Positions 3,603-59,141 of a stretch of 64,000 nt of DNA are shown here, in pieces. The notes beneath the pieces are model-generated. The model had not been told where the DNA came from. It worked only from the letters and a program-made list of their open reading frames with translations, and searched no databases. A program made the translations under genes and the position numbers. The first letter of the stretch is position 1; the number at the start of each line of letters is the position of its first letter. Source of the DNA: a virus; the IMG/VR virus record IMGVR_UViG_3300045988_133811, positions 72,790 to 136,789 of that record; one strand, written 5' to 3'.

Positions 3603-3965
3603 ATGGAACAATATTTATATGCTGATGAATATGATGATAATGAGATTAAAATTCTAACGGTTGGACAACTGTTAGAATTTTTTAATAAATCGGATGATAA
3701 AAAGAACGGTTCAAGTTTAGATGATTATATTAAAGACAATATCAAAATGGATCTTATTGAACCGTTTTGCCCACATAAAGAAGCAGAAACGGTTGTTTGT
3801 GATTTACAGCCATTAGCAAAACAGTATATCTTACAAGAAGCTGAGAAGGTTTTTAATGATATGCCGTGGGTAGATACTCAAGAAGAACTGGATAACGTGT
3901 ATCATGAGAAAATCAAGAACTTATATGATACGGTTGATTTTTCAGAGTTTGTAGCGTATTTATAG
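3603..3965 (+). CDS. Hypothetical acidic protein (120 aa)
   Basis: ORF with RBS aaggag; followed by a terminator. Confidence 0.6.
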   Translation: MEQYLYADEYDDNEIKILTVGQLLEFFNKSDDKKNGSSLDDYIKDNIKMDLIEPFCPHKEAETVVCDLQPLAKQYILQEAEKVFNDMPWVDTQEELDNVYHEKIKNLYDTVDFSEFVAYL

Positions 3966-6778: not shown

Positions 6779-7084
6779 ATGGAAAAGAACTTAAAAGATT
6801 TATACTTTGTATCTGTTTATTACAGTTTTGATTGTGATTCACCGCTTTATGTTTTTAGTACAGAAGAAGAAGCGGTTGCATTTATTAGAAAACAATATCA
6901 GGATGAATTAAACATAGAATGTAGAGAATTGGAAATTGATATGAGTGTTTCTGAAAAGGATTATAGTGATTATGGATTATTTGTCAATATATCCGATGAT
7001 GGAAATTTTGCACGTATTGAACAAGTAAATGATGATCCGTCATTTATTGAATGGAATTTAACAACATTAAGAAATGATTTATAA
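6779..7084 (+). CDS. Hypothetical protein (101 aa)
   Basis: RBS taggagga. Confidence 0.55.
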   Translation: MEKNLKDLYFVSVYYSFDCDSPLYVFSTEEEAVAFIRKQYQDELNIECRELEIDMSVSEKDYSDYGLFVNISDDGNFARIEQVNDDPSFIEWNLTTLRNDL

Positions 7085-7101
7085 AAAGGAAGGTGTACAA
7101 A

Positions 7102-7374
7102 ATGGAAATTTTAAAGATGACAAGAACAAACATGGTAGTGATTCAGACAGTGGAAAAGGAAGAACATAACACTTTTGACATTGGAAAAATCAAGGTATCA
7201 GCTTTACCACCGATCGCAAAGAAAGATCTTATCGCAGAACTTAAAAGTAAAGGATTCTGTGATGGAATGATTCATACAGCTTTACAATGTAAGTTAGAAG
7301 ATCTGAACGGATATGTGAACGTATGGAAGTATGTAGCATATATCCTTGCTGTAGAACTGATGGAAAGATTATAA
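7102..7374 (+). CDS. Hypothetical protein
   Basis: Track frame 7093..7374. First ATG at 7102 follows the RBS aaaggaagg. Confidence 0.5.
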   Translation: MEILKMTRTNMVVIQTVEKEEHNTFDIGKIKVSALPPIAKKDLIAELKSKGFCDGMIHTALQCKLEDLNGYVNVWKYVAYILAVELMERL

Positions 7375-7390
7375 GAAGGGCGGTGGAAAC

Positions 7391-7849
7391 ATGGAAAATA
7401 CAAATACATTAACAGTAAAATTCGTCGGTTTTGGTGGTGGATTTATGGAATATCCATGCTATAAAGATGAAAACGAAAAGCTATATTTTGACATAAACGA
7501 TGGAAAAAATGGACTTGACTTATACACTGGTGCTTACATGGATGAACTTGGAGATATTTGTGGTGAACCAAATCAGTCAGTAATGCAAGAAATCAAATGC
7601 GATAAACCATTTTCAAGGAATCTTAGGGAACGTGATTATCAGTTTCTAAGTAGATTAAAAGCAGATTGCGAATACTTCTTAAGAAATGGAAACGGTTGTA
7701 AGAAATACTTATATAAAGAAAGCATTGAAAAACATTGCGATGAGATGGAAAAAATATGGAATTCATTTACAGACGAACAAAAACCTAAATGGTTAACGAT
7801 GGAACAAATAAAAGATTTTAGAAAGAAAATGTTAAATACAAGAAAGTAG
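7391..7849 (+). CDS. Hypothetical protein (152 aa)
   Basis: RBS ggcggtggaaac + ATG. Confidence 0.55.
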   Translation: MENTNTLTVKFVGFGGGFMEYPCYKDENEKLYFDINDGKNGLDLYTGAYMDELGDICGEPNQSVMQEIKCDKPFSRNLRERDYQFLSRLKADCEYFLRNGNGCKKYLYKESIEKHCDEMEKIWNSFTDEQKPKWLTMEQIKDFRKKMLNTRK

Positions 7850-7858
7850 GTGGAAATT

Positions 7859-8047
7859 ATGATCGTAAGAAACACTTATACAGATGGTAGAACAGAAATT
7901 TTTTGTAATACGCCCGATGAATACAATGACTTATGTTGTGAGTACGATTTAGAAGATTGTGGTATGAGTGGAAAATACGTTGGATCTAGTTGGAGCCACG
8001 ATGATAAGAACAATGTAGACGTTTATTTTAAATGTACAGAACAGTAG
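7859..8047 (+). CDS. Small Cys-containing hypothetical protein
   Basis: Track frame 7850..8047. ATG at 7859 in the recurring context aggtggaaattATG. Confidence 0.45.
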   Translation: MIVRNTYTDGRTEIFCNTPDEYNDLCCEYDLEDCGMSGKYVGSSWSHDDKNNVDVYFKCTEQ

Positions 8048-8063
8048 AAAGTAGGTGGAAAGA

Positions 8064-8297
8064 ATGAGTCGCAGAACGACTATGGAAGCATTAGCGTGTC
8101 ACATTGAACGAAAGTACAACACACTGTACTACACGGAAAATCCTCCGAACGCTGGAATTGATGATAGCTTACATGGTTATAAATACTTCTTGCTATTCAA
8201 GAACACGTTCGGAATTTTTCAGAAATATAAAACGCAAGAAGAAGCAATTAATGGCATGACGGAAATTTTAAAAGAAGATCCGTCAAAACTTATTTAG
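8064..8297 (+). CDS. Hypothetical protein
   Basis: Track frame 8055..8297. ATG at 8064 after aggtggaaaga. Confidence 0.45.
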   Translation: MSRRTTMEALACHIERKYNTLYYTENPPNAGIDDSLHGYKYFLLFKNTFGIFQKYKTQEEAINGMTEILKEDPSKLI

Positions 8298-38350: not shown

Positions 38351-38528
38351 ACAAGAATCATTGAAGTTTTTACAAAGTTTGATTGATGAAGTAGAAAATT
38401 GGACAAAAGAAGATATTGAACGAGCGCAGAAGTTGATGGAGAAAATAGATAAAGAAGAGCCAAAAGAAGTTGAAAATAGTGATGGGTATTGGGAATTTAT
38501 AATGCCAGATGGCAAAGGAGTGAAGTAG
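38343..38528 (+). CDS. Small acidic hypothetical protein (61 aa)
   Basis: Track frame 38277..38528; ATG 38343 overlapping the upstream stop (ATGACTAA), RBS ggaagg. Confidence 0.45.
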   Translation: MTKQESLKFLQSLIDEVENWTKEDIERAQKLMEKIDKEEPKEVENSDGYWEFIMPDGKGVK

Positions 38529-38530
38529 AT

Positions 38531-40162
38531 ATGGCTAAAAAACAAGACGATAATACAATGACAATTACAAGGAAGATCACGTTAATTCCTGTCGCAAGCG
38601 AGCGAAAAGAGTGGAAGAAAAGAATTGATGCTTTCTTAGAAAAAGATTTTCCAAGAAAAATTGAAGCAAAGAAGAAACAGATTAAGAACACAAGTAAACC
38701 TGAAAGAGTAGATGGGTATAAACAACAACTTGCAGAATTAGAAAAGCAATATAAAGATTTCAAAGAAAATGGGATTAAAGAATACACTCATAAAATGGCG
38801 AGTGATTATACATATGATATTGTAAGAAGGGCAATGGAGAGTGAAGCAAGACGAAAGAACTATATTTTATCTTATATATATACAAAAATGATACAAGACG
38901 AAGTGGCAAATTTACCGACTCTTACAGAAAAGAATAAATGGGTGAGCACCAATGTAAAAGAGTGTTACCGTAAAGCAGGTAATAAGAATGGTAGTATCTT
39001 TACAAATGTTGACATTGATAATCCATTAGCAGGATATGGATCTGATTTCGGTCAAGCATTTACAAGAAAAATTAAAAAATTAATCAAAGACGGCATACTG
39101 GAAGGAAATGTTTCTGTGCCGAATTATAAATTAGATTCTCCTTTTGCTTTAAGCAATCAAAATTTTGGTATTTTTACAGATTGTGAAAATATAACAGAAT
39201 TAAAAAAGAATATTGGTAAGCCTACATATCCAGTATATGTGTGTTTAGGCAAGCATGGTCTTCCAACGATTGCTAAATTCAAGATTAATTTTGGACATAA
39301 ACAAAATAAGAATAAGGCAGAATTAATTTCAACAATTATTAAGATTCTTACAGGAGAGTATTCGGTTGGCGGAAGCACATTCGGTATTGATGACGATAAA
39401 ATAGAAATGAATTTAAGTATAACAATGCAGAAACAAAAAATGGATTTAGATGAAAATACTGTTGTTGGCGTTGACTTGGGACTTGCTGTTCCTGCCGTAT
39501 GTGCTTTAAATAATAACGAATACGACAAACAATATATCGGAAGTGGGAATGATTTTGTTACAAGAAGAACAAAATTTCAAAATGAATATACACAGTTACA
39601 AAAAGCTTTAGAATTGGCAAAAGGTGGACATGGAAGAAAAAGAAAATTATTAGCTTTAGAAAGGCTAAAAGAAAAAGAAAAGAATTTTGTTGATACATAT
39701 TGCCATCGAGTTAGTAAAAAAGTTGTTGATTATGTAATCAAACATAGAGCAAAATATATCAACATAGAAAATTTAAAAGGGTATGATTCAAGTGAATTTG
39801 TTTTAAGAAATTGGAGTTTTTATAAGCTACAGCAATATATTACATATAAAGCGGAACAATGTGGAATCATAGTTAGAAAAATCAATCCGTCATTTACATC
39901 TCAAGTGTGTAGTTTTTGTGGGCATTGGGAAGAGGGGCAAAGAAAAGATCAGGCAACATTTAAATGCAAGAATCCTAATTGTAAAAGTCACAAATTATAT
40001 ACTGTAAACGCAGATTATAATGCGGCTAGAAACATCGCAATGTCAACACAATTTACAGACGATAAATTTAAATGTTCAAAAGAAACGATTCAAGATGCGG
40101 CAGATTATTATGGAATCGTCTTAGAAGATGATAAAAATAATGATAATAAAAAAGCTGCTTAA
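38531..40162 (+). CDS. Compact TnpB/Cas12-like RNA-guided nuclease candidate (RuvC-I/II/III + C-terminal zinc finger), 544 aa
   Basis: Track frame 38489..40162; start at the ATG 38531 after the RBS aaggagtg. RuvC-I VVGVDLGLAVPAVCAL, RuvC-II YINIENLKG, zinc finger CSFCGH...CKNPNCKSH, RuvC-III TVNADYNAARNIAM. This is the canonical TnpB/Cas12f C-terminal architecture. The N-terminal 330 aa has no recognised motif. Confidence 0.75.
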   Translation: MAKKQDDNTMTITRKITLIPVASERKEWKKRIDAFLEKDFPRKIEAKKKQIKNTSKPERVDGYKQQLAELEKQYKDFKENGIKEYTHKMASDYTYDIVRRAMESEARRKNYILSYIYTKMIQDEVANLPTLTEKNKWVSTNVKECYRKAGNKNGSIFTNVDIDNPLAGYGSDFGQAFTRKIKKLIKDGILEGNVSVPNYKLDSPFALSNQNFGIFTDCENITELKKNIGKPTYPVYVCLGKHGLPTIAKFKINFGHKQNKNKAELISTIIKILTGEYSVGGSTFGIDDDKIEMNLSITMQKQKMDLDENTVVGVDLGLAVPAVCALNNNEYDKQYIGSGNDFVTRRTKFQNEYTQLQKALELAKGGHGRKRKLLALERLKEKEKNFVDTYCHRVSKKVVDYVIKHRAKYINIENLKGYDSSEFVLRNWSFYKLQQYITYKAEQCGIIVRKINPSFTSQVCSFCGHWEEGQRKDQATFKCKNPNCKSHKLYTVNADYNAARNIAMSTQFTDDKFKCSKETIQDAADYYGIVLEDDKNNDNKKAA

Positions 40163-40166
40163 GTAT

Positions 40167-40309
40167 TTGGTGTGTTTTGGAGGGAGTGCCGAACTCCCTC
40201 AACCATAAATAAAATGGTTACGCCAAAAGTGAGGAGAAATCACTCACTAAAATTTGTGTAATGAGACAGAATGTAAAGTTTTGCATTGTATACATAATTA
40301 AGATTTGAG
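40167..40309 (+). ncRNA. tracrRNA-like structured scaffold, copy 1 (starts at the nuclease stop codon)
   Basis: tttggtgtgttttgg + GC hairpin ggagggagt-gccga-actccctc + hairpin aaccat-aaataaa-atggtt + acgccaaaagtgagg-agaaat-cactcactaaaat + anti-repeat atttgtgtaat, ending in atttgagg at the repeat junction. Confidence 0.6.
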
Positions 40310-40411
40310 GTTTTAGAACCATTCAAAATTACACAAATACAAAACAAAAGAACGGCTTGTATGAATTTTCTCCGTGTTTGAGAATCATTGAAAATTACAC
40401 AAATAAAATAC
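40310..40411 (+). CRISPR. Mini CRISPR-like array 1: two related 36-nt repeats (about 30/36 identical) flanking one 30-nt spacer
   Basis: gttttagaaccattcaaaattacacaaatacaaaac | aaaagaacggcttgtatgaattttctccgt | gtttgagaatcattgaaaattacacaaataaaatac. Confidence 0.55.
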
Positions 40412-40547
40412 ATGGCATGTTTTGGGAAATTTTATTCCAATTAAAATTTCTGGTCATGGAATTGTGGCTATGCCAAAAGTGAGACCGTAAGGTACTCACT
40501 AAAATCTATGTAAATTAGGTAACAAAAATTGGACAAAAGAATTTGAG
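40412..40547 (+). ncRNA. tracrRNA-like structured scaffold, copy 2
   Basis: catggcatgttttggg + AT hairpin gaaatttta-ttccaa-ttaaaatttc + ...gctatgccaaaagtgag-accgtaaggta-ctcactaaaat + anti-repeat ctatgtaaattaggta + atttgagg junction. Same architecture as copy 1 with base-pair-preserving changes. Confidence 0.6.
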
Positions 40548-40715
40548 GTTTGATACCTATTTAATTTTACATAGGTACAAAACCGATCGAAGAAAAATTT
40601 AAGGAAAAGGGGAGTTTGATACCTATTTAATTTTACATAGGTACAAAACGTGATTACAGTAATGCAGTGTCAGAATGTGGTTTGATACCTATTTAATTTT
40701 ATGTTATTAGCTCAA
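40548..40715 (+). CRISPR. CRISPR array 2: 36-nt repeat gtttgatacctatttaattttacataggtacaaaac, two perfect copies plus a degenerate terminal copy; two 30-nt spacers
   Basis: Repeats at 40548-40583 and 40614-40649 are identical. Terminal copy 40680-40715 matches the first 22 nt. Spacers cgatcgaagaaaaatttaaggaaaagggga and gtgattacagtaatgcagtgtcagaatgtg. The repeat has an internal palindrome tacctat/ataggta. Confidence 0.8.
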
Positions 40716-40735
40716 TAAAAGAAAAATTTTAAAAT

Positions 40736-40860
40736 ACTTGGTGTGTTTTGGGAATATATATGAAATATTCTGCTCAAATAGTATTGAGTACGCCAAAAGT
40801 GAGGCTTATTATAGCACTCACTAAAATCTATGTTATTTTGTCGGATTTATGTTATTTGTG
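40736..40860 (+). ncRNA. tracrRNA-like structured scaffold, copy 3
   Basis: cttggtgtgttttggg + hairpin gaatat-atatgaa-atattc + ...gagtacgccaaaagtgagg-cttattatag-cactcactaaaat + anti-repeat ctatgttatttt. Confidence 0.6.
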
Positions 40861-40957
40861 GTTTGACAGCTATTAAAAATAACATAGGTACAAAACCTCA
40901 AAAAAGGCAGTATCTGTGGTAGGGTGCTGCTTGGCAATCATTAAAAATAACAAAATC
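40861..40957 (+). CRISPR. Mini CRISPR-like array 3: 36-nt repeat gtttgacagctattaaaaataacataggtacaaaac + 30-nt spacer + degenerate repeat
   Basis: Shares 5' gtttga and 3' ataggtacaaaac with the array-2 repeat. Spacer ctcaaaaaaggcagtatctgtggtagggtg. The following ctgcttggcaatcattaaaaataacaaaatc keeps only the central attaaaaataac block. Confidence 0.5.
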
Positions 40958-40970
40958 TAAAGGAATAAAA

Positions 40971-56285: not shown

Positions 56286-57879
56286 CATTTTGAACGATTG
56301 CAGAGGACTTTTTGAAGATGAGGTATTTGAAATTATCATGCAGGAGCGTGGTATTGATGATCCAGAGCATTTTCTAAATCCTACGGAAGATGATTTACTT
56401 CCTCTTGATGACTTAAAAAATATTGATAAAGCATATAAGCTTTTGGTAGATGCAGTATACAAAGATAAACGTATTGCAGTACATTTTGACACAGATACTG
56501 ACGGAGTTGCAGCGGGAACTATTATGACACGACATTTAAAAAACATGACAGAAAATCCAGTAGATGTATACATTAACCGAGGCAAACAGCATGGATTAGC
56601 AAATCAGGACATTGCTAAGTTTTATGGGTATGATTTACTGATTGTCGTTGATAGTTTGGATAAAGACGAGACTCAGTATAAGGATTTAAAAGAAACAGGA
56701 GTTGATGTGATTGTGTTAGATCACCATGCCATCGATCCAGATGTTCCTTATGACAACTATTGCACATTAGTTTCTTCTCAGAGAGAATATGAAAATCCAC
56801 AGCTATCTGGCGCAGGTGTTGTTTGGAAGTTTTGCAAGTATATTGATGAGCAGAATGGTACAGATTATGCAGATGATTTGGTCGATCTAGCAGGCGTTGG
56901 GCTGATTGCAGATATGATGGATATGAGAGTAATGGAGAATCGTTACATTGTATCCGAAGCTTTGAAAGAAATTAGAAATCCTGCGATTAAGAAGATTATT
57001 GGTGGATTTGAATTCAACAGCACAGCAGTTGCTTTTAGTATTGCACCGTTGGTTAATGCTGCAAACAGAATGGATCAGAATGAAATTGCTCTAAATGCTT
57101 TCCTTGAAGATGACAATAAAAAGTTACGAGGATATATTAAACAGTTAAAGCAATGCAAAGAAGACCAAAATGAAGAGGTCGCACAGCTGATGCCAATGAT
57201 TGCAGAGCAGTGTGAGGCTCAGAGTGATAAAAAGATGATCACAACTTTTATTGACACTGATTATGGTATTTCTGGATTAATTGGGAACAAGTTACTTGAA
57301 AAATATCAGAAACCGATTCTTGTGCTAAAGAAAAATGAAGATACATACGCAGGATCTATGCGAGCTGTTGGTGTCAAAGACTTTAGACAGATGTGTAATG
57401 ATAGTCAATTGGCTGAAGCGAATGGACATGAACTTGCCAGTGGTATTGAAATTCCTAGAAAGAACTTTACCGAGTTCACCTCTTATATAGAAGAAACTCT
57501 TCCAGATAAACCAGAAGATACAACAGTTGATGTCGATATTATGCTTGATATTTCAGACATTACAAGAAAAATGGTTGACACGATTAAGAAAATTGATCGT
57601 ATTTCTGGGCAGGGATTTAAGCCTGTAAGAGTTTATATTGAAGAGATTGACGACTATGACATTGGTCAGATGAGCAATTATAAACATCTTGTCCTGAAAC
57701 CATGTAACAATGATAAATTGTGGATCATTAAATGGAACTATGATGGATCGTTTGAGGATATGGAAGACCATTCTATGATGAATGATGAGTTTTGTGCAGT
57801 TACTACACTTGATTGCGGATTCTTTGGAAGAAAGTTTGTGCTGAAAGCTGTGTGTGATTCACTTGAAGAGGTGGGATGA
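56260..57879 (+). CDS. RecJ-like DHH-family single-strand exonuclease
   Basis: RIAVHFDTDTDGVAAGTIM (DxDxDG), LLIVVDS, DVIVLDHHAI (DHH). RecJ-like N-terminal LLxxRGI context (IMQERGID). Start uncertain. Confidence 0.65.
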   Translation: MKTSKKKYNILNDCRGLFEDEVFEIIMQERGIDDPEHFLNPTEDDLLPLDDLKNIDKAYKLLVDAVYKDKRIAVHFDTDTDGVAAGTIMTRHLKNMTENPVDVYINRGKQHGLANQDIAKFYGYDLLIVVDSLDKDETQYKDLKETGVDVIVLDHHAIDPDVPYDNYCTLVSSQREYENPQLSGAGVVWKFCKYIDEQNGTDYADDLVDLAGVGLIADMMDMRVMENRYIVSEALKEIRNPAIKKIIGGFEFNSTAVAFSIAPLVNAANRMDQNEIALNAFLEDDNKKLRGYIKQLKQCKEDQNEEVAQLMPMIAEQCEAQSDKKMITTFIDTDYGISGLIGNKLLEKYQKPILVLKKNEDTYAGSMRAVGVKDFRQMCNDSQLAEANGHELASGIEIPRKNFTEFTSYIEETLPDKPEDTTVDVDIMLDISDITRKMVDTIKKIDRISGQGFKPVRVYIEEIDDYDIGQMSNYKHLVLKPCNNDKLWIIKWNYDGSFEDMEDHSMMNDEFCAVTTLDCGFFGRKFVLKAVCDSLEEVG

Positions 57880-57881
57880 TT

Positions 57882-59141
57882 ATGGCAGGAAAAGAAGTAT
57901 TTTGTTCAGTCTGCGGTTTATCATCTACTTTGGACGGACATTTTTGGAAAGAAAAGAAGTTGTGCAACAGACACAATATGCAGTTAGAAAAACATGGAAA
58001 ACTGTTAGATAAAGATATAGTGATCCCTAAAAAGAGGCATAGATGGACTCCAGAAGAAGAAGTCAGATTAGAAGAGTTGTATAAACAAGGAGTTTCTTTT
58101 GAAAAAATTAGTAAACAAATGAATCTATCCGTGGCAGCCATAGCGGCTCGAAGTCGTCATTTGAATCTTGGCAATAAGTATATGAGGTCTAATAATCCTA
58201 ATTTTAAAGCCACATATCAGGATTATGATTGGTGTTATGAAAGATATGTTGTTAAGGGAATGACTCATCAAGAAATGGCAGATGAATGTGGTGCCTCGTT
58301 AAGAGTTATTCAGAAATGGTGTTCTGAAGTTCATAAATTAAATTGTTGGACTTTCAAAAACAATAAGACATTAACCGATAAACAGTATCAAATTATTTTA
58401 TTTGGCACATTAGGAGATGGGCATATTGATAAGAGAGAGACGCAACCTTTGTATATTGAATGTCATTCTATAGCAGAAAAGGATTACGTGTTTTGGAAAT
58501 ATGAAGAATTAAAAGATTTATGTAACTCTGAGCCAAAGTATTATGAAGGTGGCTATAAAGATTTTGGTTCTGGTACAAAGTATTGGTGTAAACCACATTA
58601 CAGATTTGAGACAAGAATTATTAATCAATTGAAGGACATTCGAGACATGCCAAGAATCAATAAGATTTGGCAATTGAATGAATTTGGATTATCTCTTCAT
58701 TGCTTAGACGATGGATGCAGAGGTAAATCAGCGTGGGAATTATGTTTGGCAGAATATACTCAGCAAGAAATTGATTTATATATCAAGCTGTGTAAAAAGA
58801 GATTTGGGTTATATGCTAAACAGCAGACAGATAAAAGATATATAAGATTTGATTCAGATTCAAGTAGAATTATTGATCAAATTATTTTAAACAATATTCC
58901 TAATTCGCTTGACATTATCAAAAAGAAGATATTAGAAAACGATAAAATTTCTAAAAAAGTAAGATACATTTATGTTGTCATGCAGAACGGAGAACAGATT
59001 GGTTTATCTACATATTGTAGATCTCATGGTATTCCATATGAAAAGACAAGAAAATATGTCATTGAGCACAATATCTCTCGAATTCAAGAAGCTGATCTAC
59101 TAAATAGATTAAAAGCTGGAGGATTAATGAATGCGGTATAA
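57882..59141 (+). CDS. LAGLIDADG-type homing endonuclease-like protein with an N-terminal zinc finger and a Myb/SANT-like helix
   Basis: Track frame 57876..59141. CSVCGL...CNRHN; WTPEEEVRLEELYKQGVSFEKISKQMN (Myb-like); ILFGTLGDGHID and LHCLDDGCRG (two LAGLIDADG-like motifs). Confidence 0.5.
   Translation: MAGKEVFCSVCGLSSTLDGHFWKEKKLCNRHNMQLEKHGKLLDKDIVIPKKRHRWTPEEEVRLEELYKQGVSFEKISKQMNLSVAAIAARSRHLNLGNKYMRSNNPNFKATYQDYDWCYERYVVKGMTHQEMADECGASLRVIQKWCSEVHKLNCWTFKNNKTLTDKQYQIILFGTLGDGHIDKRETQPLYIECHSIAEKDYVFWKYEELKDLCNSEPKYYEGGYKDFGSGTKYWCKPHYRFETRIINQLKDIRDMPRINKIWQLNEFGLSLHCLDDGCRGKSAWELCLAEYTQQEIDLYIKLCKKRFGLYAKQQTDKRYIRFDSDSSRIIDQIILNNIPNSLDIIKKKILENDKISKKVRYIYVVMQNGEQIGLSTYCRSHGIPYEKTRKYVIEHNISRIQEADLLNRLKAGGLMNAV

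Follow-up and report, generated by a model that had tools for sequence, protein, structure and literature searches.

The DNA described here, referred to below as the window, is a stretch of 64,000 nucleotides (nt) from a human-gut phage (IMG/VR virus record IMGVR_UViG_3300045988_133811, positions 72,790 to 136,789 of that record). [quoted passage not shown] Each module consists, in this order, of its own predicted trans-activating CRISPR RNA (tracrRNA), a short leader ending in ATTTGAG and a mini-array of 36-nt repeats with one or two spacers. About 70 related phage loci in IMG/VR carry one to five such modules each, always on the cas12f strand. The features are listed in Table 1. An initial annotation of this DNA had described repeats and spacers at 40310-40957; the features it placed there include neither cas12f nor the three tracrRNA-like genes.

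Table 1. Features of the CRISPR-Cas12f locus, with positions counted from the first letter of the window
Feature	Position	Strand	Description
cas12f	38531..40162	+	type V-F1 / V-U3 kind, 543 aa; Pfam, NCBIfam, PADLOC and PDB matches
match of a spacer from related locus L051, inside cas12f	39720..39749	-	27/30, 5' flank TTTG
tracrRNA-1 (predicted)	40167..40273	+	P1; junction GUUUUG 40174-40179; P2, P3, P4; UAAAAU; anti-repeat ATTTGTGTAAT 40252-40262; GAATG 40269-40273
leader end ATTTGAG, array 1	40303..40309	+	type II-A Group 1 junction ATTTGAG/GTTT
mini-array 1	40310..40411	+	repeat 40310-40345; spacer W_1 40346-40375 (30 nt); terminal repeat 40376-40411
tracrRNA-2 (predicted)	40413..40521	+	P1 TGGCATG:TATGCCA; junction GUUUUG 40419-40424; P2-P4; anti-repeat CTATGTAAA 40506-40514; TAGGTA 40516-40521
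leader end ATTTGAG, array 2	40541..40547	+	same motif, enriched across modules
mini-array 2	40548..40715	+	identical repeats 40548-40583 and 40614-40649; degenerate terminal repeat 40680-40715
spacers W_2a and W_2b, mini-array 2	40584..40613 and 40650..40679	+	30 nt each
tracrRNA-3 (predicted)	40738..40842	+	P1; junction GUUUUG 40745-40750; P2, P3, P4; anti-repeat CTATGTTATTTT 40828-40839; GTC
leader end ATTTGTG, array 3	40854..40860	+	one-base variant of ATTTGAG
mini-array 3	40861..40962	+	repeat 40861-40896; spacer W_3 40897-40928; degenerate terminal repeat 40929 to ~40962
pairing in module 1			anti-repeat ATTTGTGTAAT with repeat segment ATTACACAAAT
pairing in module 2			anti-repeat CTATGTAAA (+TAGGTA) with repeat segment TTTACATAG (+TACCTA)
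pairing in module 3			anti-repeat CTATGTTATTTT with repeat segment AAAATAACATAG

Genome setting and effector

The window looks like phage DNA. Its G+C content is 33%, one strand carries 91 of its 97 open reading frames (ORFs), and among the encoded proteins are a phage-type DNA polymerase, a DnaB-like helicase and a RecJ-like exonuclease. The IMG/VR contigs of the relatives measure 44-170 kb, mostly 85-170 kb. Among GenBank phages the locus has no near match, and the protein-level matches found there are distant TnpB-like genes only.

The Cas12f protein matches the Pfam families Cas12f1-like_TNB (2e-17) and OrfB_IS605, both above their cut-offs, the NCBIfam model guided_TnpB (3e-44) and the PADLOC models Cas12u3 (4.7e-95, profile positions 20-394 of 398) and Cas12f (8e-91). 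The nearest solved relatives by sequence are CnCas12f (PDB 8hr5, 7e-60) and Al3Cas12f (PDB 9nzo, 7.5e-59); for the 240 N-terminal residues there is no close relative of solved structure. The RuvC residues D315, E413 and D495 and the four CxxC...CxxxxC zinc-ribbon cysteines are intact, and are conserved in an alignment of 16 homologs. Size (400-700 aa), C-terminal split RuvC, zinc-ribbon TNB insert and relationship to TnpB all agree with a type V-F effector. The three mini-arrays lie at most 800 nt 3' of the effector gene, as in type V-F loci, and, as in V-U3, no cas1, cas2 or cas4 gene was found in the locus within a scan of 62 window ORFs.

Two other assignments were rejected. The NCBIfam Cas12f2 model scored 107 against a cut-off of 450, so the effector is not Cas12f2. 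A PADLOC match to 'Csx1' (PDLC01039, 4e-23) is the RuvC half of Cas12f (residues 284-507) hit by a mislabelled model, and there is no Csx1 in the window. In a cluster of 415 sequences represented by protein P0119 (alignment A4), the RuvC-I aspartate is replaced by N (VVGVNLG) and the RuvC-III motif is altered; this cluster may be a nuclease-dead branch of the phage Cas12f family.

Predicted tracrRNA genes

Alignment of the inter-array stretches revealed an element of ~90 nt that recurs in front of each array. In its predicted fold, stem P1 (TGGYRTG:YAYGCCA) closes a three-way junction with an unpaired GUUUUG and hairpins P2 and P3. On the 3' side of the junction follow AAAA, hairpin P4 (GUGAG...CUCAC), UAAAAU and a 3' tail. 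The fold of tracrRNA-1 has a z-score of -6.2 and those of the other two have -4.8 each; owing to G-U pairs in P1, the reverse strand folds less well. Since a MAFFT alignment of the three paralogs misaligns P2 and P3 (RNAalifold recovers P1, part of P2, and P4 only), independent single-sequence folds were relied on instead. Folded singly, 17 of 18 copies from six genomes show the four-helix architecture, though the P2 and P3 sequences are wholly different between modules, and P1 contains a compensatory exchange of G-C for A-U between modules.

The tracrRNA 3' tail carries an anti-repeat to the repeat of the same module (Table 1). The predicted duplex of tracrRNA-1 with repeat 1 has an energy of -16.4 kcal/mol, against -9.5 and -6.5 kcal/mol with repeats 2 and 3. 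For tracrRNA-2 the values are -17.9 kcal/mol with repeat 2 and -5.9 and -8.6 kcal/mol with the non-cognate repeats, and for tracrRNA-3 they are -18.4 kcal/mol with repeat 3 and -7.8 and -10.2 kcal/mol otherwise. Over six genomes, the cognate duplex was the most stable in all 18 rows of the 3x3 matrices (cognate -12 to -20.5 kcal/mol, non-cognate -4 to -14 kcal/mol). The pairing of anti-repeat and repeat that marks a type V-F tracrRNA is thus present here by computation only.

A second contact is suggested by the junction GUUUUG, which is complementary to the final six bases of the repeat (CAAAAC), directly before the spacer. In locus L011, with four modules and a Cas12f 69% identical to that of the window, this contact co-varies as GUUUUG:CAAAAC, GUUUCG:CGAAAC and GUUCUG:CGGAAC. 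More distant loci have further co-varying variants, and in some of them the tracrRNA is minimal, P1 being a hairpin with the pairing strand as its loop. A pseudoknot between the tracrRNA 5' segment and the repeat 3' end has been reported to be usual for Cas12 guide RNAs (bioRxiv 10.1101/2025.01.20.633832). Pairing of GUUUUGG with an internal CCAAAAG was also considered, and was dropped because only the pairing with the repeat 3' end co-varies. The conserved end of the repeat, ATAGGTACAAAAC, had been proposed in the initial annotation as a 3' handle; in type V systems it is instead the 5' handle of the CRISPR RNA (crRNA).

From the conserved fold, the cognate anti-repeat complementarity and the co-variation of the junction it is concluded that the ~90-nt elements are three putative tracrRNA genes, one dedicated to each mini-array. 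The 3' half of the tracrRNA was made into a covariance model, and a search of the window and 77 loci with it (550 kb, E <= 0.01) gave 154 matches, all on the cas12f strand. Exactly three of these lie in the window, at 40219-40262 (60 bits), 40469-40514 (62.8 bits) and 40789-40836 (65.6 bits). Most loci have two or three modules, some of them upstream of cas12f. The same elements could in principle be leaders, promoters, terminators or unrelated small RNAs next to a Cas12f that uses crRNA alone, as some type V effectors need no tracrRNA and no Rfam family matches the predicted RNA. Such a reading is very unlikely: every module has a 3' tail that can pair with its cognate repeat and that alters in step with it, co-variation also links the junction to the 3' end of the repeat, no copy departs from the cas12f strand, and both CnCas12f and Al3Cas12f are tracrRNA-dependent, with tracrRNAs of 129-156 nt (PMC13186708).

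According to the mechanism proposed for these dedicated tracrRNAs, each would contact its own repeat twice, first through the long, module-specific anti-repeat:repeat duplex and then through a 6-bp pseudoknot in which the junction GUUUUG pairs with CAAAAC, the six bases that end the repeat. Pairing might take place in cis within one transcript, as in a natural single guide-like RNA, or in trans. When whole modules are folded as single RNAs, the anti-repeat pairs with the first repeat in cis and the spacer is left free; for module 2, the nested fold prefers GUUUUG:CAAAAC over P1. The cis, single-guide mode is a possible arrangement, judged somewhat less likely than not.

Repeats, spacers and their turnover

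The placement of repeats and spacers given earlier holds in all three arrays, as does the composition of array 2 (two perfect 36-nt repeats plus a degenerate terminal copy, which degenerates after ~22 nt). Tandem Repeats Finder also detects array 2. Three of the four spacers reported as 30 nt long (W_1, W_2a and W_2b) have this length. The fourth, W_3, measures 32 nt, because repeats in array 3 recur every 68 nt and the protospacer match extends over 32/32 positions. A GTTT start had been ascribed to all repeats, and the terminal repeat of array 3, which begins GCTTGG, departs from it. The same three arrays occupy the same position in seven related IMG/VR phage contigs whose Cas12f is 90-98% identical, so the pattern is not due to chance.

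In the window and in all relatives the terminal repeat of array 1 ends in ATAAAATAC rather than in ATACAAAAC. The altered end yields a TAAAAT box (40404-40409), 4-5 nt upstream of tracrRNA-2, and an equal box precedes tracrRNA-3 (40730-40735). A decayed array 1 repeat may have been re-used in this way as a promoter element. The conserved TAAAAT 4-5 nt upstream of each P1 (TAAGTAT before module 1) is the sole promoter hint at the locus.

Phages that are 90-98% identical in Cas12f have different spacers. Within four groups of near-identical phages, members have their leader-distal spacers in common and a leader-proximal spacer that is new or changed, as in the series [s77,s78,s79], [s76,s77,s78,s79] and [s82,s77,s78,s79]; the degenerate repeats are the terminal ones. 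Shared distal spacers with new leader-proximal ones are the classical signature of polarised acquisition. Among 85 distinct arrays, 54 have one spacer, 24 have two, five have three and two have four. The period of the repeat unit is 66 nt in 91 of 125 units, and 114 of the 125 spacers measure 29-31 nt.

These comparisons bear on whether the spacers are instead fixed guides of ωRNA-like RNAs, either TnpB-like or resembling the tandem guides of nuclease-dead Cas12f (dCas12f)-sigma-E systems, and inherited rather than acquired. Cas12f relatives with tandem single guides do exist (PMC13472631, PMC10691335), the scaffold-plus-guide layout folds like a single guide, and only one spacer is present in 54 of 85 modules. 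Inherited guides nevertheless appear extremely improbable, since spacers are completely different at 90-98% Cas12f identity, their number varies from one to four per module with gain at the leader end and retention of the distal ones, a further repeat follows every spacer, RuvC is intact and no rpoE gene is present. Spacer turnover together with leader-end gain supports arrays that are adaptive, as had been proposed earlier; invariant spacers in related phages, named at that time as the result that would speak for a fixed guide, were looked for and not found, and the suggested comparison of relatives for spacer turnover revealed gains at the leader-proximal end with the distal spacers kept.

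One spacer is common to L076 (~3772-3816, in a module downstream of cas12f) and L071 (2026-2070, in an upstream module), which points to module shuffling or to repeated acquisition of one protospacer. Array 1 of L006 (7810-7871) contains a 62-nt 'spacer'.

Targets and protospacer flanks

Metagenome contigs were scanned with 22 nt of W_2b. The spacer matches 30/30 on four human-gut contigs (L156-L159), with no repeats around the match and with the 5' flank TTAA. W_3 matches 32/32 on L157 and 31/32 on L156, with the 5' flank TTAC. The longest complete target contig, L156 (12,394 nt), has a G+C content of 33.7%, like the phage, and a 55-nt terminal overlap indicates a circle. Its genes encode a DnaD/HTH/DUF6017 replication protein, ParA, a serine resolvase, an HNH endonuclease, an SprT-like protein and a PBECR nuclease. 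By this gene content the L156 family is a ~12-kb circular plasmid-like element of human-gut metagenomes. It has no near match in PLSDB or INPHARED, and its Rep protein gave weak matches only, to Bacillus and Vescimonas plasmids, so that no host was assigned.

Eight further spacers, from seven related loci, match the same element family (30/31, 28/30, 28/30, 28/30, 27/31, 26/30, 24/30 and 24/30), on both strands and in several genes. The spacers of arrays 2 and 3 of L006 (8080-8109 and 8323-8353) share their last 13 nt because both match one plasmid site (L156 8385-8415) in different variants. A spacer of L051, a locus with 60% identical Cas12f, matches the antisense strand of cas12f in the clade of the window (Table 1), and at 29/30 in L002.

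The spacer-identical strand carries a 5' flank of the form TTW in seven of 11 protospacers (TTAA, TTAC, TTTG, TTTA, TTAT, TTAT and TTTG); by our own estimate, TTW is expected by chance at ~0.07 per site at this base composition. Cas12f nucleases have a 5' T-rich protospacer adjacent motif (PAM) (PMC13186708, PMC7229846). As a class, type V-F effectors cleave dsDNA next to a T-rich or C-rich 5' PAM, as a homodimer on one guide RNA. The T-rich flank that the initial annotation had advised looking for is seen; the bias fits the Cas12f motif and supports the proposed crRNA orientation independently. On the 3' side of protospacers in L156-L159, CG occurs at +5/+6 in four of ~10 (AAAGCG, TTTTCG, AAGACG and TGATCG), too small a sample for recognising any trace of a Cas9-type PAM at acquisition.

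Other searches were negative. No match was found in INPHARED phages for 24 spacers and later for ~85 (with some overlap), or in PLSDB plasmids for ~20 spacers. IMG/VR, searched with exact seeds of W_1, W_2a, W_2b and W_3, gave nothing or chance matches of 19-22/30. Spacers of the window or its clade do not match the window or the cas12f flanks of L001-L007, in agreement with the earlier remark that they are not obviously derived from this window, and the window spacers likewise have no match in the flanks of the broader collection of related loci. For all spacers, comparison with the surroundings of the DNA polymerase genes in 62 related phages (1.2 Mb) gave low-complexity partial matches only.

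The guide RNA would direct Cas12f, with its intact RuvC, to DNA with a 5' T-rich PAM of roughly TTW, where cleavage would be expected. The known targets, a plasmid-like element and the cas12f of a rival phage, suggest a locus that acts as a weapon between mobile elements. This agrees with the targeting of competing mobile elements proposed from the sequence earlier: two of the four window spacers match the plasmid-like element perfectly, and the L051 spacer points at the cas12f of this clade. The locus might also serve the host, for example as a prophage-borne defence of the lysogen against plasmids and phages rather than as a weapon of lytic growth. Targets of both kinds fit either reading, and an anti-repressor-like gene is present in the window. 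A role for the host is unlikely all the same, as no integrase or host junction came to light in the 64 kb, phage replication genes and strongly one-stranded ORFs are present there, and no array of the repeat 2/3 pattern was found in 185,579 representative bacterial and archaeal genomes (a single chance match, in Vibrio, was not part of an array).

Leader ends and the source of new spacers

The identical octamer noticed earlier before arrays 1 and 2, ATTTGAGG, is present; its identity as the end of a type II-A leader had not been recognised. In type II-A Group 1 arrays, the leader-repeat junction is conserved as ATTTGAG followed by a 36-nt repeat that starts with GTTT (Van Orden 2017, PMC5382924). 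For S. thermophilus, the last 10 leader bases and one repeat are summarised there as enough for spacer integration (Wei et al. 2015, via PMC5382924). Exact ATTTGAG lies just 3' of the tracrRNA in 63 of 113 distinct modules, compared with 0.027 expected per 130 nt, and GTTT follows TTTGAG in 48 of 71 cases. The arrays have the features of type II-A arrays, in which ATTTGAG or CTRCGAG abuts a 36-nt GTTT repeat and spacers are ~30 nt long. Neither cas9-cas1-cas2-csn2 nor a Cas9-type tracrRNA was found in the window, and Cas12f is the effector next to the arrays, so the locus is not of type II-A and resembles such a locus at the integration site only.

In the proposed mechanism, new spacers would enter at the leader-proximal end, loaded by Cas1-Cas2-Csn2 of a host type II-A system. 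The ATTTGAG/GTTT junction, the 36-nt repeats, the 30-nt spacers, the polarised gain and the lack of adaptation genes among the ORFs scanned all point in this direction; the host type II-A machinery would be the likeliest loader, and loading by it is put forward tentatively, at slightly below an even chance. Turnover might instead arise when co-infecting phages recombine entire cassettes, or through a phage integrase that went unrecognised, with ATTTGAG acting in RNA processing or transcription and no type II-A role of the host. The spacer common to L071 and L076, in modules on opposite sides of cas12f, would fit this, and the conserved flanks would permit homologous exchange. We consider it rather unlikely, since strictly leader-proximal gain and spacers of 29-31 nt are hallmarks of Cas1-Cas2 integration, and strong enrichment is seen for the exact ATTTGAG/GTTT junction of type II-A with 36-nt repeats.

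Several results count against type II-A loading or against the account as a whole. The interiors of the repeats reach 24-26 bits with Rfam CRISPR-DR22, below its gathering score of 50, and so show a weak, sub-threshold likeness to type II-A. A spacer chosen by Cas9 would not automatically bring a Cas12f PAM, and four of the 11 protospacer flanks are not TTW. The scan of representative genomes yielded no host or prophage, so that a type II-A system in the host is presumed only. The zero PADLOC matches to Cas1, Cas2 and Cas4 pertain to 62 window ORFs of at least ~100 aa, in 64 kb of a ~160-kb genome; in the relatives, no cas genes were seen among the called gene lengths and a few Pfam marks near the locus. 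A scan of the + strand for sigma-70 promoters and terminators gave nothing convincing. The spacer searches proposed in the initial annotation found targets for W_2b and W_3, and none for W_1 and W_2a in any set searched. On the target plasmid, PADLOC detected no defence system, and no defence or satellite function was recognised.

Taken to its full extent, the account would describe widespread human-gut phages whose own Cas12f reads guides written by the type II-A machinery of the host, a cross-type and cross-genome acquisition via mimicry of the junction. Their self-contained modules would fold in cis as intermediates between ωRNAs and dual-RNA guides, and the mutually diverged anti-repeat and pseudoknot pairs would give one Cas12f several separate guide channels. 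This combination as a whole is doubtful.

Neighbouring features

A stretch of 17 nt, AAAATTGGACAAAAGAA, in the leader of module 2 (40525-40541) is identical to a site at 38395-38411, 120-136 nt upstream of the cas12f start codon. The pair is also kept in relatives and might be regulatory, a cr-like contact or a remnant of duplication. At 33573-33591 lies a tRNA-like 19-mer, TAGCTCAGTTGGTAGAGCA, common to several related loci; it could represent part of a tRNA or a diverged one, and ARAGORN calls zero tRNA in the window. An ORF of 421 aa (57876-59141), directly upstream of the DNA polymerase gene, matches LAGLIDADG/HNH homing endonucleases and a D5-like regulator. In some related phages (L139, L142-L148) the DNA polymerase match is ~1 kb longer on the DNA. 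In L011, two Tad2-like genes and a nucleoside deoxyribosyltransferase-like gene (7039-8068) are located ~0.5 kb downstream of the four-module arrays. Tad2 is an anti-Thoeris factor, and from these neighbours the CRISPR locus may sit within a counter-defence region.

Comparison with known systems

The closest known systems are type V-F1 / V-U3 (CnCas12f, AsCas12f, SpCas12f and Al3Cas12f, from Clostridia and Bacilli), with which the locus shares a miniature RuvC and zinc-ribbon effector and the best profile and PDB matches. Also shared are a predicted tracrRNA dependence, a repeat-derived 5' handle, a probable 5' T-rich PAM and the lack of an adaptation module; V-U3 Cas12f systems have no adaptation genes (PMC7229846). 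The described loci have one tracrRNA and one array, so far as the covered literature shows, whereas here one to five mini-arrays, each with its co-evolved tracrRNA, are borne by a phage and have a leader end of the type II-A kind. Within the incomplete coverage of the literature, no account was found of one active Cas12f served by several dedicated tracrRNA-array modules that co-evolve, or of a type V locus with a leader end of type II-A.

Phage-borne type V-F and V-U systems with compact arrays and no Cas1/Cas2 have been reported, and borrowing of host Cas proteins was proposed for them (Al-Shayeb 2020, PMC7162821). These systems and virus-borne mini-arrays have in common with the present locus the phage origin, the lack of acquisition genes, very short arrays and spacers directed against other mobile elements. 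In the present locus, by contrast, only the adaptation machinery would be borrowed, and from a type (II-A) other than that of the V-F effector; the modular tracrRNA layout is not described in PMC7162821. A phage locus of type V-F with the leader end of type II-A would offer a testable answer to the question of where mobile-element CRISPR systems lacking Cas1-Cas2 obtain their spacers. Type II-A Group 1 arrays share the ATTTGAG/GTTT junction, 36-nt repeats of the form GTTT...AAAC, 30-nt spacers and leader-proximal acquisition. They differ from the phage locus in that here no cas9, csn2, cas1 or cas2 is nearby, the tracrRNA has the Cas12f layout and the repeat interiors are different.

Tandem complete guide RNAs are known from nuclease-dead Cas12f-sigma-E systems and from ωRNA arrays (PMC13472631, PMC10691335), which likewise have a protein of the Cas12f lineage followed by tandem complete guide genes, with scaffold and guide on one transcript. 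The dCas12f-sigma-E systems are nuclease-dead, their RuvC domain being inactivated or truncated, with a neighbouring rpoE gene and sigma-E partner, single chimeric guide RNAs with fixed guides of 14-16 nt and no repeat after the guide, whereas the phage locus has an intact nuclease site and spacers that are exchangeable and lie between repeats. Among the neighbours examined, no sigma factor was found. TnpB-ωRNA elements (IS200/IS605), which have a fixed guide at the right end of the transposon, transposon ends or a TnpA partner and no repeat-spacer units, differ as well, since the guides here are bounded by repeats and turn over; insertion sequence ends were not evident, no dedicated search having been made. 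Tandem guide systems illustrate how evolution can pass from ωRNA to tracrRNA plus crRNA and return again. In the phage loci the multiplying unit appears to be the whole guide module (tracrRNA, leader and mini-array) and not the repeat-spacer unit, which bears on how an ωRNA splits into tracrRNA and crRNA. The naturally diverged tracrRNA:repeat pairs for one miniature Cas12f would, if mutually specific, lend themselves to multiplexed or orthogonal guide designs.

Vibrio phage ICP1 reportedly (work ascribed to Seed et al., 2013) uses a type I-F CRISPR system against the PLE island. Common to both cases are a phage's own CRISPR effector directed against a small, host-resident mobile element and rapid turnover of spacers. 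ICP1 differs in having a complete type I-F system with its own Cas1-Cas2, and the plasmid-like target described here has no recognised anti-phage function. In the human gut, the present locus would bring together a conflict of phage with plasmid and a conflict of phage with phage over a rival cas12f, between defined partners that can be tracked in metagenomes.

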